Positions 26,609-34,187 of a stretch of DNA of 64,000 nt are shown piece after piece. The notes beneath the pieces are model-generated. The model was not told the DNA's origin and ran no database searches. It saw only the letters and a program-made list of their open reading frames with translations. Where the stretch lies: assembly GCA_963704165.1 (NCBI GenBank), contig CAVPHD010000004.1, positions 254,429 through 318,428 of the forward strand, in the 5' to 3' direction. The position numbers and the translations under genes were made by a program. Source of the DNA: an uncultured delta proteobacterium. Lineage in GTDB: Bacteria; Myxococcota_A; UBA9160; SZUA-336. How positions within the stretch are numbered: the stretch's first letter is position 1; each line of letters begins with the position of its first letter.

Positions 26609-29572
26609 ATGGTCGCTCTACGACTTTTCGCGCTGATCCTACTGACGGGGTCTTTGGCCCTGTCTGCGCGTGCGGACTTGTTTCCGTACGAGAACGTGGG
26701 AACTGGCGGAGACAACAATACGATCGATTCGAATGCGCTCTCGTGTGATACCGGCGAAGGCTGTTACACGACGACGGGTGCGCGCTGTTCAGACAACCCA
26801 AACCAGCTCTGCAACCTGCAGATCGTTCCCGCGGGACGCTGCACCTACGGCAGCCTGACCAGCGGCGTCGGTCCGGGCGGCACGAGCTGCGTGTTCCCGC
26901 ACTGGGCGGGACGCTGCACCGGCAATACGAAGGTCGGCTGCTTGAGCAACGCTCAGTGCGCCGATGCCGGCGGTACCTGCGACCTCACGATCTCGGTGTT
27001 CGGTGAGCTCGCGGCCGGGTACGCCGGAGAGTGCAACTGCCAGGGCACGAACTCCGCAGGCGCCGACTTCGAGATCGCGGTCTGCGGCAGCGGCCTCTCG
27101 GTCTGCTCCGATGGCGATTCCGATCGCGACGTGGGTGGCTGGGGCACGGGGCTTGGCGTCGAGCTGAAGACCGGTGGTCCGGGCTCCCAGACGTTCGCGA
27201 ACATGGGACCGGCCATTACCGGCGAAGCGACACCGAAGAGCACCCCGCCCTTCGCGATCGAGAACCCGCCGACCAACTTCGACCCGCAGCGCGATGCCGG
27301 TAGCATCGCCCGCACGCCGGCGCAGGGTACGGGACCGATTCACCCGGTCCGCACTACCGACGCGCGCGAGCTCGGTCCGTACGTCCATCCGACGATCGGC
27401 ACCTCCGTCGACGTCCGGAAGATGAAGTCGCACGGAGACTCCTACTGGAGCGACACGGGGTTCGCCTCCGCGGCGGTCACCGGTACGTACAACACGCACA
27501 TCGTGACCTACCCGTGCGATCCGCCCGTCGGTTGGACGCCCGGTGCAGTGGTCAGCGGCGGTTTGTACTGCCACCAGGTTGCGATCAGCGGCATGAGCTT
27601 CCTCTGGGGTTCGGATCTCACCCCGGCTCAGGTCACGGCGTACACGTCGGGTGGGCAGCGCGTCTGCCCGCCGAACTGCAACAAGGACTTCAATCTCTCG
27701 ACGATGGAGCTCCAGGCCTTCGTCGATGCCGGTGCCGCCGATCCGAACGCGGGCATCCAGCTCGCGATCCAGAGCGGCGAGGAAGCGGCCGGTCGTCAGG
27801 CGGGAACGCGTGACGTCATCGGCGTTGCCGCGATCACCTCCCTCACTTGGCTGATCGACACCGACATCCGCTGCAAGATGGGCGGTTGGGGCAACGCACC
27901 CGGCGTCGTCGGGCGCTGCAACAACGGTCCGCGCGTCTGCACGCCGGGCACCGCGGGCGACGCGGCTTGTGCGGTCGCTCCGAGCAACGGCTCGAGCTGC
28001 CGACCCTGTGTCGGTCCCTTTGATGCAGGCACCAACCCGCTCGGTCTCCCGATCGGCTACAACACCCATGGCCGCGCCGAGCTCGATCTCGTCGCCGGCA
28101 AGCGCATCGGCAGCATCCCCGGCCCGACGGCCGGGGTGCGGGTCCCGCTCTTCGTCGTCGGCACGACCGGCAACGCGGCGGCGGACTTCCGCGATATCGC
28201 AGGCCAGGGCGCGCCAGATGTCGATCTCTCGGACCTCGGTCCGGTCGATCCGGGTGGTGCGGCGTTCGCCAGCGGCGTCGGTACGGGTGGGTCGTTCCCG
28301 AACGGAACGCCTCTGAACATCGCCGAGCCCTGCTGCCTGAGTGCCGGCGCCATCGCGTGGTCGGCTGAGGCAGGCGGCGAGGTCGTCCCCGGATCCGAGG
28401 ACGGCTTCAGCTATCGCTACGACGCCGGCGGCGGAGACGTGCACCTCAGCGATTGGGCGCTCGTCTACGACAAGGGTCCCGGTCCGGACGGTATTCCGGG
28501 CTGCATCGGCGACAACGTCAACGTGCTGAACGGAAGCGCGGCCTGTAATTCGCGCCTCGGCAAGACGCCGGATGGTGCGAAGACCAACGGCTACTACGCC
28601 ACGGGTCAGGACGACCGCGCGCTTCGCCACACCGTTGGTGCGGCACTGCTCCCGGCCGTGTCGTCCCGGTTCCAGTACCGCGACGCCTCTCCGGCGGTCA
28701 TGACGTACTTCGGGACGGCGCAGAATCCGCCGACCATCAACACGGCCGCGGCGTTCACCCTGCGTGACGTCGCCGTCTTCGTGCCGCGCAGTGCGGACAT
28801 CCTGGTGAAGACCAACACGACGGCGTGCCCGCTGACGAGCAGCGGTCCGGTCTGCACCCCGGCGGGGGATCCGTGCGCCGGCCTCGGTGGTGACACCGAC
28901 GGCGACGGGGTCTGCAACGACAACGACAACTGTCCGTCGATTGCGAACGCGGGCCAGACGAATGGCGACGGCGACACGCTCGGTGACGCCTGCGACAACT
29001 GCCCGACGGTGACCAACGAGGCGCAGACCGACGGCGACGTCGATACGGTCGGCGACGCCTGCGACAACTGCCCGACGGTGGCGAACACCAACCAGGCAGA
29101 CGGAGCGGCGGGTCTCGAGATTCCGCCGGACGGCGTTGGCGATGCGTGCGACAACTGCACCCGGGTCAACAACCCGCGCGTGGCCTCGAACTTCCTCTCG
29201 ACCAACCAGTGGGCGACGCTCACCGGCGGCCAGAGGGACGACGACCACGACGGCTACGGCAACAAGTGCGACGCGGACTTCACCGCGGCGGGCTTGTTCG
29301 TCGGATCGGGCGATCTGGCGCAGTACCGCATCAGCAGCGGCAAGAACCGCACGGGTGACACCTGCGGTACGGTCGGCACGCAGCCCTGCGCTCGGTACGA
29401 CCTGGATGAGGCCGGACTGTTCCTTGGCTCGGGCGATCTCGCCCTCTACAGGGGTCTCAGCGGCAAGCAGGCAGGTCCGCGCTGCGCCACGTACTGCACG
29501 GGAACGGGCTCGGCCACGCTCCCCTGCACGGCGGGTACGGCAGGATCCTGCACGCACGTTTTCAGTCCGTAG
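26609..29572 (+). CDS. Large secreted Cys/Gly-rich protein with thrombospondin type-3 repeats and dockerin-like C-terminus (987 aa)
   Basis: GGAGGGG RBS and ATG at 26609; signal peptide ...LALSARA; DTDGDGVCNDNDNCP and repeated GDACDNCP; twin CDADF...GDL / YDLD...GDL repeats. Confidence 0.85.
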   Translation: MVALRLFALILLTGSLALSARADLFPYENVGTGGDNNTIDSNALSCDTGEGCYTTTGARCSDNPNQLCNLQIVPAGRCTYGSLTSGVGPGGTSCVFPHWAGRCTGNTKVGCLSNAQCADAGGTCDLTISVFGELAAGYAGECNCQGTNSAGADFEIAVCGSGLSVCSDGDSDRDVGGWGTGLGVELKTGGPGSQTFANMGPAITGEATPKSTPPFAIENPPTNFDPQRDAGSIARTPAQGTGPIHPVRTTDARELGPYVHPTIGTSVDVRKMKSHGDSYWSDTGFASAAVTGTYNTHIVTYPCDPPVGWTPGAVVSGGLYCHQVAISGMSFLWGSDLTPAQVTAYTSGGQRVCPPNCNKDFNLSTMELQAFVDAGAADPNAGIQLAIQSGEEAAGRQAGTRDVIGVAAITSLTWLIDTDIRCKMGGWGNAPGVVGRCNNGPRVCTPGTAGDAACAVAPSNGSSCRPCVGPFDAGTNPLGLPIGYNTHGRAELDLVAGKRIGSIPGPTAGVRVPLFVVGTTGNAAADFRDIAGQGAPDVDLSDLGPVDPGGAAFASGVGTGGSFPNGTPLNIAEPCCLSAGAIAWSAEAGGEVVPGSEDGFSYRYDAGGGDVHLSDWALVYDKGPGPDGIPGCIGDNVNVLNGSAACNSRLGKTPDGAKTNGYYATGQDDRALRHTVGAALLPAVSSRFQYRDASPAVMTYFGTAQNPPTINTAAAFTLRDVAVFVPRSADILVKTNTTACPLTSSGPVCTPAGDPCAGLGGDTDGDGVCNDNDNCPSIANAGQTNGDGDTLGDACDNCPTVTNEAQTDGDVDTVGDACDNCPTVANTNQADGAAGLEIPPDGVGDACDNCTRVNNPRVASNFLSTNQWATLTGGQRDDDHDGYGNKCDADFTAAGLFVGSGDLAQYRISSGKNRTGDTCGTVGTQPCARYDLDEAGLFLGSGDLALYRGLSGKQAGPRCATYCTGTGSATLPCTAGTAGSCTHVFSP

Positions 29573-29582
29573 GGCAATGGTT

Positions 29583-29632
29583 CTCCTGGGTCAGATTTCC
29601 AGCGGGAAATCGGTGGAAATCTGACCCAGGAG
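29583..29632. repeat. Perfect 19-bp inverted repeat with 12-nt spacer, followed by T5 (possible terminator and/or operator)
   Basis: CTCCTGGGTCAGATTTCCA at 29583-29601 and its exact reverse complement at 29614-29632. Confidence 0.9.
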
Positions 29633-29743
29633 GTTTTTCGATGTGGTAGGCTGCGCTTCAAGGTGCAGCGCAGGGGCTCGAAGCAGATGTCGCATCGACG
29701 GTTTCTGGCAGAGTCCAAATTCACTGGAGGGAAGGAACTAGGT

Positions 29744-30280
29744 ATGAGAAAGCTAATGGCAGTGGTCGCGGTCGCGGCCGGATTGATGCTCGGTTCGGTT
29801 GCGAACGCAGCCCAGATCGACATCTTTCTGACCCAGACCAGCGCGACCGATTGGGATCTGACGGTCGACAACAACGGCGGCGTGGACCTCGGCGCGGTCA
29901 ACGTGTGGGTGTCGAACAACCTGACCGCGATGACCCTGAATCCGCTCAACGCGGGGATCAGCATCGGCGACAGCTCGTTCAACTACGACGCGTTTCCGCC
30001 CGACAGCTTCGTGATCATCAGCAACGCCAGCGCGGCGGGCACGATCGCGGCGGCGGGTGCGCAGGACGTCCTGTTGGCGTCGTTCACGGGCACCGGCGGT
30101 CCGGTCGTGTTCCAGGACAGCACGTTCGTTGGATCGGACACCGCGTTCGACAACAACCTGGTGGCGATCGGCGATTACTCGCTCACGGTGGTCCCGACCC
30201 CGCCCGTGCCGGAACCGGCGTCGATGGTTCTGCTCGGCCTCGGTCTCGCGGCGTTCGGTCTGGTTCGCCGCTCGGCCTGA
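29744..30280 (+). CDS. PEP-CTERM (exosortase-targeted) protein
   Basis: Signal peptide ...SVANA; C-terminal VPEPASMVLLGLGLAAFGLVRRSA. Confidence 0.93.
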   Translation: MRKLMAVVAVAAGLMLGSVANAAQIDIFLTQTSATDWDLTVDNNGGVDLGAVNVWVSNNLTAMTLNPLNAGISIGDSSFNYDAFPPDSFVIISNASAAGTIAAAGAQDVLLASFTGTGGPVVFQDSTFVGSDTAFDNNLVAIGDYSLTVVPTPPVPEPASMVLLGLGLAAFGLVRRSA

Positions 30281-30314
30281 TTCTCTGTCTCTGAGATCGC
30301 CCGGTGATCTCGAA

Positions 30315-30346
30315 AGGGGCGGTGTCGCGAAAGCGGCACCGCCCCT
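30315..30346 (+). terminator. GC-rich hairpin after the PEP-CTERM gene (terminator or stabiliser)
   Basis: AGGGGCGGTGTCGC-GAAA-GCGGCACCGCCCCT; weak U tail. Confidence 0.7.
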
Positions 30347-30449
30347 CTGATTTCTGCGACGCTGCACCGCGCGTCTTGACCTTGCCCCCGGTGCGTGTTC
30401 AGATCGAAGCGGTCGTCGATGAACGACTCGCACACAGGAAGGGAACGCC

Positions 30450-31508
30450 ATGCTCCGCAGCTCGTTCATTCTGATCTCCGCGACGTTCGCGCTCTCGCTT
30501 GCGGGATCCTCGAGCGCCGCGGTCACGGTCTTCCAGGATCCGAGCTGCACGCTGCCGTGCACGGCGGGAACTCCCGGCGCGCCGCCGGCGGCGGTGGTCG
30601 TTGGCGGGCCGTCGGTCGCGCTGAACCTCTTCTACCAGGGAGGCTCGGTCGCCTCGACCGGCAATCCGTGCCTGTCCGGCAACGGCGAGGAGACCTGCGG
30701 CTGGGACATCCACGTCTCGACGAGCGGCCCCGGCGTCGTCTTGCAGAGCTTCACGCCCGACACGAACCCGGGCTCCGACATCGTCGCCGCGATCACGGGG
30801 AACGTCCTGCGTGCGAACGGCGGCCTGCCGACGACGGGTGAGCTCGGAATCCGCCGGATCGGCACGCTCGTCGTCGGCGCGACCGCGCCGGGCTCGGTGA
30901 CCGTCTCCGGAAACCTGTACGTGACGGCCAGTCTTCAAGCCGCGCCGGTGACGAGCGGAAACACGCTCGCGGTCGCCGCGGCCGGCGGACCCGACACGGA
31001 CGGCGACGGCGTCGACGACGCGAGCGACAACTGCCCGACGGTCGCGAACCCGACCCAGCTCGACCTGGACGGCGATCTGGTCGGCGACCTCTGCGACAAC
31101 TGCGTCGAAGACTCGAACCCGCGCGTGGCCGGGGACTTCCTCTCGACCAACCCGTGGGCGACGCTGACCGGTGGCCAGAGGGATGACGACCACGACGGCT
31201 ACGGGAACCGCTGCGACGCGGACTTCACCGCGACGGGCTTGTTCGTCGGCTCTGCGGATCTGGCCCAGTTCCGCGTCAGCAGCGGCAAGAACCGCACCGG
31301 CGACACCTGCGGCACGGCCGGCACGCAGCCCTGCGCGCGCTACGACCTCGACGAGTCGGGGCTCTTCCTCGGCTCGGGCGATCTCGCCGTCTACCGGGGG
31401 CTGAGCGGAAAGCAGGCGGGGCCCCGGTGCGCGGCCTGCACCGGAACCGGATCCGTCCCGCTCCCCTGCACGGCGGGCACGGCGGGATCCTGCACGCACA
31501 CTTTCTAG
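30450..31508 (+). CDS. Secreted protein: beta-rich N-domain, TSP3 repeats, dockerin-like C-terminus
   Basis: Signal peptide; [15 protein letters not shown]; C-terminal ~135 aa nearly identical to that of 26609..29572. Confidence 0.85.
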
Positions 31509-32974
31509 CGCCGCGCGGAGAGCTCGAACTGGCTGATCTTCCCCTGGGCCTCGAGCTCCTTCATCCGCTCGTTGAACCAGAGCCCGATGGTGAGCCCGCG
31601 CTCGCGCTGTAGCAGGCGATCGCGCGTCCCCGCGAACTCCTGCTCGATCCGCGCGGGATCGGGCTCTTCTCGGGCGAGCAGCGAGACGACGTAGAGGTTC
31701 TCGCCGTCGCTGAAGACGCGATTCGCGCTCGGCCGGACCTGCGTGAGCGCGAATGCCTCCTGCTTCAGGTCCGCGACCCCGGAGAGCCCGGGCACGCTCG
31801 GGTCGCGGATGCCGAATGGGGCCGTGACGCCGACGGGAAGCCCGAGGCCGTCCGCCGCGGCCACGAACGGCTTGCCCTCGGCCAGCTCGACGATCAGCGT
31901 GTTCGCGGCGGCCCGGGCGGCGTCGGCGGCCCGATCGTCGCGCAGGATGTCGATCGCCAGAAGCTCCGCGACCTCCTCGAAGGGGGTCTGGCTGCCGGCG
32001 TCGTGGCTCTCGACCCAGATCAGGTGCACGCCGCGCTCGGTCCTCACGGGGCCGCTGGGCTTGCCGGGCTCGAGCGCGAACGCGGTCTCGTCGAACGCCG
32101 CCATCATGCGGCCGCGCGGAAAGCTGCCGAGGTCGCCGCCGTCCTCGCGTGTCGCGGCGTCGGCCGAGAGCTCCCGGGCGAGGTCCGCGAAGCTCTCTCC
32201 CGCCTCGAGCCGGCCTCGCGCCGTGATCGCGTGCGCCTCGGCATCCTCCCCCGTGAAGAGAATGTGGCGCGCGTGCACCTGCTCCGGTTTCGAGAAGTCG
32301 GCGATGCGCAGCTGGTAGGCACCGCGAACACGATCGGGGTCGTTCGCGACGAGCGCCTTCGCGTCGTCGGGTGTGATGACGACCCGCTCGCGAAACGCGC
32401 TCTTGCTCGCGGTCGCGTAGCGAAGGCTGATCCGCGTCTCGGCCCGCAGGATCTCGTCGCGCACCGCAGCGTCGGAAATCAGCACCGGCGAGGCGACCAG
32501 GCGCGAGAAGTTGCGCAGCAACAGGTCGCGCCGGTGCTGTGCGGCGTACTCGCGCGGCCCGAGTCCGGTGCGCGAGATCTGCCGTTCGGCCAGCTCTCGA
32601 TCGAACTTCCCGTCGCGGAGCAGGCCGGGCGTGCTCTGGAAGTCGGCCTTGAGTGACTCGTCCGAGACGCCGAGCCCGAGTGACTCGGCTTCCTGCGACA
32701 ACACGTAGCGGCGCACGAGGGATTGGCGCGTCTGCTGGTCGATCATCGCCGAGAGCTGATCCGCGTCGATGCCCTGCTGGCTGAACTCGCGGAAGGCCTG
32801 CTCGTTCTGCTCGCGGAAGAACTCGAAGACGTCGCGCGGGATCGACTGGCCGTTCACCTGCGCGACGGGTGCGGTCGAAGGATCGGAGCCCTCCGGCTGG
32901 CCGAAGAAGAACGCGAACACGACGAGCACGCCGATGATCGCCAGGTTGCGCAGCCAGATTCCGATCCGCCCCAT
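31505..32974 (-). CDS. ppiD: PpiD-like periplasmic chaperone (SurA-N + parvulin PPIase)
   Basis: N-terminal [43 protein letters not shown]. Confidence 0.9.
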
Positions 32975-33037
32975 CTCGATCTCCCCTCCGAAGTCGCGGC
33001 AAGCTGCCGTTTTCCGAGCTTTGCACAAGGCTCGTGC

Positions 33038-34187
<1,150 letters not shown>

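Follow-up and report, generated by a model that had tools for sequence, protein, structure and literature searches.

The window analysed here, a 64,000-nt stretch of DNA from an uncultured Myxococcota bacterium of soil and freshwater, contains between positions 26609 and 31508 three secreted-protein open reading frames, hereafter A, B and C, all on the + strand and all with an N-terminal Sec-type signal peptide, as read from the sequence (Table 1). The genes are not tightly coupled: they are separated by gaps of about 170 nt, and a strong hairpin lies 3′ of B. The sequence-only reading of this locus had described three co-directional secreted proteins, the outer two ending in TSP3 repeats plus a twice-repeated motif and the middle one made of a single β-rich domain with a PEP-CTERM end. 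Our analysis bears out this description: the Pfam TSP_3 model is significant in both A and C, which share 78–88% identity in their C-terminal parts, and B combines a confident β-sandwich (pLDDT 86) with a significant PF07589 match.

Table 1. Features of the A-B-C locus (positions refer to the window).
Feature	Position	Strand	Basis
Gene A, 987-aa secreted protein	26609..29572	+	ORF; orthologues in same position elsewhere
Signal peptide of A, MVALRLFALILLTGSLALSARA	26609..26674	+	Read from sequence
TSP3 calcium-binding repeats of A	28841..29170	+	Pfam PF02412, 30.5 bits; aligns with TSP3 region of C
Dockerin-like Cys-rich tail of A	29171..29569	+	88% identity to C tail; member of alignment A3
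Gene B, 178 aa: signal peptide, one cohesin-like domain, PEP-CTERM	29744..30280	+	35 homologues; AlphaFold pLDDT 86.1
Cohesin-like β-sandwich of B	29816..30193	+	Foldseek against PDB: top 41 all cohesins
PEP-CTERM sorting signal of B, VPEPASMVLLGLGLAAFGLVRRSA	30203..30271	+	PF07589 and TIGR02595
Terminator-like hairpin 3′ of B	30315..30346	+	14-bp stem, 11 G-C pairs, T-rich tail
Gene C, 352-aa secreted protein	30450..31508	+	ORF; AlphaFold pLDDT 88.9; 244 homologues
Cohesin-like N-domain of C	30525..30980	+	Top 27 Foldseek matches are cohesins
TSP3 repeats of C	30987..31115	+	Pfam TSP_3, 34.4 bits; PDB sequence matches
Dockerin-like Cys-rich tail of C	31116..31505	+	DDDxDGxGNxC loop, two loop-helix segments, Cys-rich end

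Protein A consists of a 740-aa Cys-rich N-region followed by TSP3 repeats and the shared tail. No known family was found for the N-region, the Pfam search of A returning TSP_3 alone. The ATG taken as the start of A lies downstream of a GGAGGAG-like site that is kept in the orthologue of genome G022, and same-position orthologues of A are present at five other loci (L008, L009, L011, L027 and L028). The TSP3 repeats of both A and C score above the Pfam cut-off (PF02412, 25 bits), and those of C match COMP and thrombospondin-2 among PDB sequences (E 6e-20). Like the type 3 'calcium wire' of thrombospondin and COMP, they are DxDxDGxxDxxDNC repeats with disulfides, a likeness significant for both Pfam and PDB sequences; unlike in these proteins, there are only two to four repeats, which lead into the tail, and no lectin-like C-terminal domain.

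The start codon of B agrees with its homologues, which begin at MRKL. Its predicted domain was compared with the PDB by Foldseek, as the earlier reading had proposed, and cohesins account for every one of the best 41 matches (E 4e-5 to 4e-3, probability 1.0, TM to target 0.50–0.57). In protein C, the order is N-domain, TSP3 repeats, tail; the N-domain, already noted as β-rich and cohesin-like, is predicted with a pLDDT of about 90, and the top 27 matches of a whole-protein query, the result of which is dominated by this domain, are likewise cohesins (TM to target up to 0.69 with 2vo8 and 2xdh, rmsd 3.4–4.4). Both domains are thus predicted to have the nine-stranded flattened β-sandwich of jelly-roll type that characterizes cohesins. 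The Pfam Cohesin model (PF00963) matches neither B nor C, either with hmmscan at E≤1 or when the genome is searched in six frames at E≤10, and no relationship was found between B and the N-domain of C by sequence comparison. We judged the assignment by fold, giving no weight to the strand motif that had been matched by eye: of the weak cohesin assignment proposed earlier, the part that stands is the fold of both domains, not membership of the Pfam family. Note that the cohesin fold is a common jelly-roll, and fold likeness alone does not prove dockerin binding.

The C-terminus of B is that of a PEP-CTERM protein: it comprises the PEP motif, a transmembrane helix and a basic cluster, it goes with an N-terminal signal peptide, and it scores above the cut-offs of PF07589 (29.7 bits, cut-off 20.7) and TIGR02595 (23.7 bits, cut-off 16). 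The genome encodes 11 PEP-CTERM proteins, and the exosortase whose presence was to be checked is represented by three genes of the EpsH family (PF09721, 185.6, 153.8 and 32.6 bits, on contigs C10, C1 and C12, respectively).

A and C are 78% identical over their last 178 residues (E 1e-87) and 88% identical over the 130-aa tail. The tail is about 125–130 aa long, has seven to eight conserved cysteines and is devoid of any hydrophobic segment. Its twice-repeated motif represents a genuine internal duplication, the copies agreeing at about 14 of 24 positions, and AlphaFold predicts a loop and then a 10-residue helix in each (the helices span residues 268–277 and 309–318 in C). The loop ends carry invariant aspartates (D34/D48 and D77/D89 in alignment A3), and the predicted helices begin two residues ahead of the invariant Asp; the loops have 15 and 13 residues, not 12, and calcium-ligand position 5 is unconserved. 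The genome-wide count called for by the earlier reading gives six to seven copies, carried by A, C and four other secreted proteins. In a public protein library clustered at 50% identity, 504 clusters contain the tail, 304 of them at E≤1e-10, and nearly all are from Myxococcota metagenome-assembled genomes. It nearly always occupies the extreme C-terminus of proteins of 85–1584 aa with diverse cargo (glucose/sorbosone dehydrogenase, FG-GAP/VCBS, esterases, Kelch, DUF11 and others); tandem or internal copies also occur, three in P0037 and two in a 959-aa protein of this genome. Given these numbers of copies and clusters, the shared tail and its duplication are far beyond chance, and their distribution suggests that the tail behaves like a portable C-terminal tag. 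In genome G048, one gene pair carries a CHRD domain with a PEP-CTERM end and with the tail, side by side, so that the two ends look like alternative surface-address tags. With more than 500 clusters and neither a Pfam nor an NCBIfam model, the tail represents a sizeable undescribed domain family.

How close is the tail to a dockerin? The Pfam Dockerin_1 model matches neither the tail nor B or C, even in six frames at E≤10, and the tail profile retrieves nothing from PDB sequences at E≤10. When the A3 tail profile is aligned with a dockerin profile by hhalign, however, both loop-helix segments fall in register over 67 columns (E 1.1e-4, probability 55.9%). With a single dockerin, that of Xyn10B, the register is the same and the score weak (E 0.024, probability 2%), and with the G017 dockerin alone the match is not significant (E 0.18). 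This last protein is the syntenic orthologue of C in the sister genus g7 (BLASTP 2e-20 to C). It shares the N-domain and TSP3 repeats of C and then carries, in place of the tail, a Dockerin_1 domain scoring above the cut-off (36.2 bits); upstream of its gene lies one for a PEP-CTERM protein, downstream a surA-like one. Two other genomes, G029 and G052, also combine a C-like N-domain and a Pfam dockerin within one ORF, and G020 contains variants homologous to the tail (probability 98.9%), the loops of which are, by eye, nearer the dockerin pattern.

Like type I dockerins (PF00404), the tail consists of tandem duplicated D-rich loops, each followed by a predicted α-helix starting at an invariant Asp, and it is a C-terminal module of varied secreted cargo, placed where an orthologue has a true dockerin; the in-register profile alignment points the same way at an intermediate probability. 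It differs from them (i) by its length, about 125 aa versus about 60; (ii) by its 13- and 15-residue loops; (iii) by its seven to eight conserved cysteines; (iv) by an extra N-terminal hairpin/loop and a C-terminal CxxC...C...C knot; and (v) by escaping the Pfam model. The dockerin likeness noticed in the sequence-only reading holds for the duplicated loop-helix architecture and for the position taken by a dockerin in the G017 orthologue, not for Pfam membership. Tail-rich genomes contain zero to three Pfam dockerins and tail-less genomes of the same family 5–14, so the two distributions are partly complementary. In one Myxococcota lineage, canonical dockerins appear to have given way to the tail, and this would make the family a natural experiment in the evolution of plug–socket specificity.

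The A-B-C order is kept in seven further genomes of the genus as well as in G020 and G022, while G017 keeps B and C, and in the four metagenome contigs rpoD stands on one side of the cassette and surA/mreBCD on the other. No full-length B turned up in 4 of the 12 genomes of the genus, these being draft assemblies, nor in G048, which contains 55 tails. The identity between the A and C tails of one genome is 88%, about 66% or 49%, compared to 38% between orthologous tails of different genera. This pattern suggests that the A and C tails evolve in concert, as they would if a single co-evolving partner had to accept both.

The three-gene set resembles, in a Gram-negative host, the plug-and-socket system on which clostridial cellulosomes are built. 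Gram-positive cellulosome producers have anchoring scaffoldins with a single cohesin, namely Ruminococcus flavefaciens ScaE, attached by sortase (LPXTG), and Clostridium thermocellum OlpA, OlpC and SdbA, attached by SLH domains; the cohesins of OlpA and OlpC (4dh2 and 3ul4) occur among our fold matches. Like these, B is small and secreted, combines one cohesin-fold domain with a C-terminal surface sorting signal and is encoded near proteins ending in a duplicated calcium-loop/helix module; unlike them, it belongs to a two-membrane host, has a PEP-CTERM/exosortase signal instead of LPXTG or SLH, shows no Pfam-level sequence similarity and is associated with non-cellulolytic cargo. Cohesin and dockerin are found in one chain in the ScaA/ScaB-type adaptors of Acetivibrio cellulolyticus and R. 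flavefaciens (PDB codes 3ghp, 3l8q and 4uyp). C resembles them in having a cohesin-like domain at its N-terminus and a dockerin-like module at its C-terminus, so that it could bridge anchor and cargo, but it has only one cohesin, a TSP3 linker rather than an X-module, and a derived Cys-rich plug. Non-cellulosomal cohesins of known structure come from Archaeoglobus fulgidus (2xdh) and Clostridium perfringens (2jh2, 2vo8 and 2w1n). A passage of a review (PMC5244752, citing Peer et al. 2009) places non-cellulosomal cohesin and dockerin modules across bacteria and archaea and states that their function outside cellulolytic clostridia "is not known". The present modules also occur in an organism that does not degrade cellulose, with the difference that they belong to one conserved cassette, which includes an exosortase sorting signal and a family of derived plugs specific to the lineage.

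Those computational checks proposed in the sequence-only reading that we ran all came out in its favor, and the dockerin of the G017 orthologue adds an independent line of support. Taken together, these data support the overall interpretation put forward there: the cassette is most likely a cohesin–dockerin-type docking system adapted to a double-membraned bacterium. In the form that we favor, with a probability of roughly 0.55, B would be an exosortase-sorted cohesin anchor, C an adaptor with both a cohesin and a dockerin-like module, and A and the four other tail proteins tagged cargo. B would be exported by Sec, held by its PEP-CTERM helix and passed to exosortase, which would sort it to the cell surface or matrix, where it would present one cohesin-like socket. 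The tail would be the plug, a calcium-binding and disulfide-stabilized module made of a TSP3-like loop and two loop-helix segments behind the TSP3 repeats, through which A, C and the other four proteins would be held non-covalently. Since C has both socket and plug, it could bridge B and cargo as an adaptor or chain extender. In this scheme, we infer the binding of the tail to a cohesin-like domain, its need for calcium, the pairing of sockets with tails and the action of exosortase on B. In the literature that we searched, no paper mentioning PEP-CTERM together with dockerin was found, and to our knowledge the use of exosortase substrates at the Gram-negative surface is poorly understood. The cassette comprises a small cohesin with a PEP-CTERM end, an adaptor uniting cohesin and plug, and a defined complement of tagged cargo, and it offers a compact, testable link between this question and that of non-cellulosomal cohesin/dockerin function. 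If the binding proves true, the disulfide-stabilized pair could serve as an orthogonal docking tool.

A rather less probable account, to be taken seriously nonetheless, sees the tail as a self-standing module for calcium-dependent attachment to a non-protein ligand, such as exopolysaccharide, LPS or the surface of a mineral or plant, or else as a stabilizer of the TSP3 array, with B and the N-domain of C being generic β-sandwich surface proteins, for instance of matrix or floc, and the genes being neighbors owing to a shared envelope or matrix role. Such a view would agree with the TSP3 repeats and their Cys-rich, calcium-binding tail making up an extracellular module complete in itself, as in thrombospondin and COMP, with the separate transcription signals of the genes and with the fact that the tail, B and C all fall short of dockerin or cohesin membership at the sequence level. 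It would also accommodate G048, where 55 tails coexist with no detectable B-type or C-type domain, and the weak match of B to the flocculation-associated PEP-CTERM protein PepA (NF033554), sub-threshold at 24.1 bits for a cut-off of 80. It leaves unexplained, however, the true dockerin at the tail position of a C orthologue, the specific matches of both β-sandwiches to cohesins rather than to assorted Ig/CBM folds, and the within-genome concerted evolution of the A and C tails. Docking might also take another form than a 1:1 tether, which we consider doubtful: C would polymerize head to tail from B as a base into a surface filament or lattice capped or decorated by A and the other tail proteins or, more generally, the tail would be a sorting tag in trans, anchorless proteins plugging into B in the periplasm and leaving with it via the exosortase pathway. 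Finally, a C-terminal secretion or sorting signal following the logic of the T9SS C-terminal domain, read by a dedicated export/processing machine and not by a cohesin-like receptor, would suit a tail that is confined to one lineage, nearly always forms the very end of secreted proteins that are unrelated in every other part and in one gene pair swaps with PEP-CTERM on the same cargo domain, but is very improbable for a large, disulfide-rich, predicted calcium-binding module without hydrophobic segment, which has tandem and internal copies unusual for a cleaved signal, no conserved candidate processing gene seen adjoining its genes, and canonical dockerins at the same position in orthologues.

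The three genes of the cassette, A, B and C (see the table), each encode a protein with a Sec-type signal peptide at its N-terminus, as judged by eye from the sequences. Apart from TSP_3 (A and C) and PEP-CTERM (B), both scoring above their Pfam cut-offs, no family was found in the three proteins by Pfam and NCBIfam scans; matches to MtsC, Omp28-seleno and PepA, which lay far below their cut-offs and were due to the TSP3 repeats or to the sorting signal, were rejected. The last 178 residues of A and C are 78% identical (E = 1e-87), and the identity to A reaches 88% over the final 130 residues of C. The sequence-only reading had described three co-directional secreted proteins, the outer two ending in TSP3 repeats plus a shared motif and the middle one in a PEP-CTERM anchor; the open reading frames and signal peptides, the Pfam matches and the A–C tail identity bear this description out, and only the start of B had to be refined. 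The Cys- and Gly-rich N-region of A is kept in all A orthologues; no relative of it was found in Pfam, NCBIfam or PDB sequences, its sole PDB match (9mg8, a de novo designed Ala/Glu-rich repeat protein) being a compositional artefact.

Features of the cassette and its surroundings (window positions)
Feature	Position	Strand	Size or remark
Gene A	26609-29572	+	987 aa
N-region of A	26675-28840		~720 residues
Gene B	29744-30280	+	178 aa
Terminator-like hairpin, strong, directly after B	30315-30346		14-bp stem, 11 G-C pairs
Gene C	30450-31508	+	352 aa
Final 130 residues of C	31116-31505
Convergent surA/ppiD-like chaperone gene	31505-33076	-

The structure of B predicted from an alignment of 32 homologues is a confident β-sandwich, preceded by the signal peptide and followed by the PEP-CTERM helix (mean pLDDT 86.1, pTM 0.73). 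When this model was compared with the PDB by Foldseek, ranks 1–41 were occupied by cohesins only (best E = 4e-5, probability 1.0), with TM-scores normalised to the target of 0.50–0.57. The model of C, which relies on 67 sequences (mean pLDDT 88.9), consists of a β-sandwich (residues 26–177), a coil-like TSP3 stretch and then the tail, i.e. the Cys-rich C-terminal module shared with A, where two 10-residue helices are predicted (residues 268–277 and 309–318). Cohesins fill ranks 1–27 of the corresponding fold search (TM-score to the target up to 0.69), the matches including the non-cellulosomal cohesins of Archaeoglobus and C. perfringens. At the sequence level, hhalign revealed no relationship between B and the N-domain of C, nor between B and A, and the Pfam Cohesin model matched neither B nor C, both in a protein scan and in a six-frame genome search. 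A weak Cohesin match on contig C2 (positions 2672–2932) lies inside an unrelated enzyme, whose sequence reads like that of an FAD-binding oxidase, and was therefore treated as spurious.

When 1.84 billion representative proteins were searched in full with HMMER, the tail was detected in 504 clusters (304 at E ≤ 1e-10), almost always at the extreme C-terminus of proteins of 85–1584 residues and occasionally in tandem copies. The N-terminal cargo to which it is fused is diverse (glucose/sorbosone dehydrogenase, FG-GAP/VCBS, esterases, Kelch, DUF11, CHRD) and comprises many regions without an assigned family. Among species-representative genomes, the tail is nearly confined to metagenome-assembled genomes labelled Myxococcota, Myxococcales or Deltaproteobacteria. 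Its alignment displays, from N- to C-terminus, an invariant GGQxDDDxDGxGNxCD loop and two homologous loop–helix segments, each bounded by invariant Asp residues, with 7–8 conserved cysteines overall; no match to the tail was found in Pfam, NCBIfam or, using the tail profile, PDB sequences. The window's own genome (G000) encodes five tail-bearing proteins, one of which has two tails, plus one decayed remnant. The latter is a gene encoding a 256-residue protein (G000:C3:555510-556280, i.e. L018:7511-8281, - strand) that comprises a signal peptide, TSP3 repeats and a tail broken off after its first half, followed by unrelated sequence; it overlaps the end of the neighbouring ORF on the opposite strand. 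Another gene on the same contig (L016:1494-8267), directly upstream of and convergent with a gene for a 509-residue tail-bearing protein, encodes a secreted giant of 2257 residues that, by eye, starts with a C-type-lectin-like region and contains a TSP3 motif and many Ig-like repeats; its internal Pfam Cohesin match is non-significant (E = 1.7).

Dockerin_1 does not match the tail, even at E ≤ 10, in a Pfam scan and a six-frame genome search. Profile–profile alignment places both loop–helix segments of the tail in register with both segments of dockerins, with an E-value of 0.024 against the Xyn10B dockerin alone (sequence checked against 1ohz and 2ccl) and of 1.1e-4 against a small dockerin profile (probability 56%), a tie that is suggestive but not conclusive. 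The syntenic C orthologue of genus g7, which shares the N-domain and the TSP3 repeat with C (BLASTP E = 2e-20) and lies between an upstream PEP-CTERM gene and a downstream surA-like gene, carries a Pfam-significant Dockerin_1 domain (36.2 bits) exactly at the position of the tail in C. A C-like domain and a dockerin are also combined in similar proteins of two other compared genomes (G029 and G052), and canonical dockerins in this class, too, directly follow a TSP3 repeat, as ...GDACxCGD.... Within the same family, tail-rich genomes contain 0–3 Pfam dockerins versus 5–14 in tail-less genomes. Finally, the tail variants of genome G020 are homologous to the tail (probability 98.9%), and their loops DFDYNNAGAVIDSTDFNQIK and FDHNGLGAVVDSTDFNLAK look nearer to the dockerin pattern by eye. 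Because of the in-register profiles, the dockerin of the g7 orthologue, this complementary distribution and the G020 variants, we conclude that the tail is putatively equivalent to the dockerin in function and has probably descended from a TSP3–dockerin fusion, of which it would be a derived form reinforced by disulfides. Outside the window, G000 encodes a 795-residue secreted CotH kinase-family protein (G000:C4:76934-79321, i.e. L030:1934-4321; Pfam 122.9 bits). It has a TSP3-like lead-in within the chain, and its canonical CECGD-type dockerin scores slightly under the Pfam cut-off (17.5–22 bits); at least one ordinary dockerin-like module thus persists in this genome alongside the derived tails.

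The A-B-C order is conserved in four metagenome contigs, where the cassette is flanked by folE–rpoD on one side and, on the other, by the convergent surA/ppiD-like gene followed by mreBCD–PBP2–rodA. A further seven genomes from the genus have it too, and so do, with diverged tails, G020 and G022. The A and C tails of one genome share 88%, ~66% or 49% identity, versus 38% for orthologous tails between genera, the pattern that would be expected if both had to fit the same co-evolving receptor. Since neighbouring genes are separated by about 170 nt and a hairpin follows B, the three genes probably do not form one tight operon; the hairpin suggests separate transcription of C or attenuated read-through. 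C and the convergent chaperone gene, a neighbour kept in all the cassettes examined, overlap by 4 nt at their stop codons (31505-31508). In G022, two tandem B-like genes lie between A and C (L028:2887-4396, contig C118), the second with an atypical C-terminal signal, LPEPALVSLLSLSILAALASRSSHRRA, missed by Pfam. G000 also contains, near a contig end, a frameshifted partial copy of B (G000:C3:340-1252, L029, - strand), near-identical over residues 30–130, the remainder, including a broken PEP-CTERM, being in another frame; it looks like a recent pseudogene duplicate.

Considering the cassette as a whole, we favour, with a probability of about 0.55, an arrangement of anchor, plug, adaptor and cargo. 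B would be a socket sorted by exosortase, its subsequent fate being inferred; the tail would be a plug binding in a calcium-dependent manner; C, which possesses both socket and plug, would be an adaptor; and A and the other tail-bearing proteins would be cargo, with presumed rules for which socket takes which plug. The parts themselves, their predicted folds, their distribution and their conservation are results of the analysis. G000 contains three exosortase-family genes and encodes 11 PEP-CTERM proteins. Among known systems, Gram-positive cellulosomes offer the nearest parallels, with their anchoring scaffoldins that have a single cohesin (ScaE, OlpA, OlpC, SdbA) and their adaptor scaffoldins that combine cohesin and dockerin; the loosely characterised cohesin/dockerin modules outside cellulosomes are also close. 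In the literature searched, PEP-CTERM was not found mentioned jointly with dockerin, or with cohesin and dockerin, and exosortase and cohesin co-occurred in a single paper only, as separately treated topics. The cassette stands apart from these systems in that it has a PEP-CTERM/exosortase anchor signal in a double-membraned bacterium, its putative plug is a 125-residue Cys-rich derivative fused to TSP3, and its cargo is not cellulolytic.

Alternatively, the tail could be an autonomous calcium-dependent module for adhesion or stabilisation, unrelated to B and C. This we deem rather unlikely, although it is supported both by the failure of sequence-level family membership and by genome G048, which has 55 tails and where sequence searches detected neither a B-type nor a C-type domain. 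That the tail is a secretion or sorting signal is highly improbable, given its tandem and internal copies and the dockerin present in a C orthologue. Two loci of G048 deserve mention. At the first (L084:7175-9292, contig C39), a gene for a 233-residue protein that consists solely of a signal peptide, TSP3 and tail is followed by genes for two small PEP-CTERM proteins (254 and 180 residues), one of which bears a weak partial likeness to B (hhalign probability 82%, 47 columns). At the second (L085, G048:C24:218500-222000), the products of two adjacent genes have homologous CHRD domains; one product ends with PEP-CTERM and the other with TSP3 and tail. The same cargo domain is therefore found with two alternative C-terminal address modules, which, under the favoured arrangement, would agree with the two ends serving to address proteins to the surface, one directly and the other indirectly.
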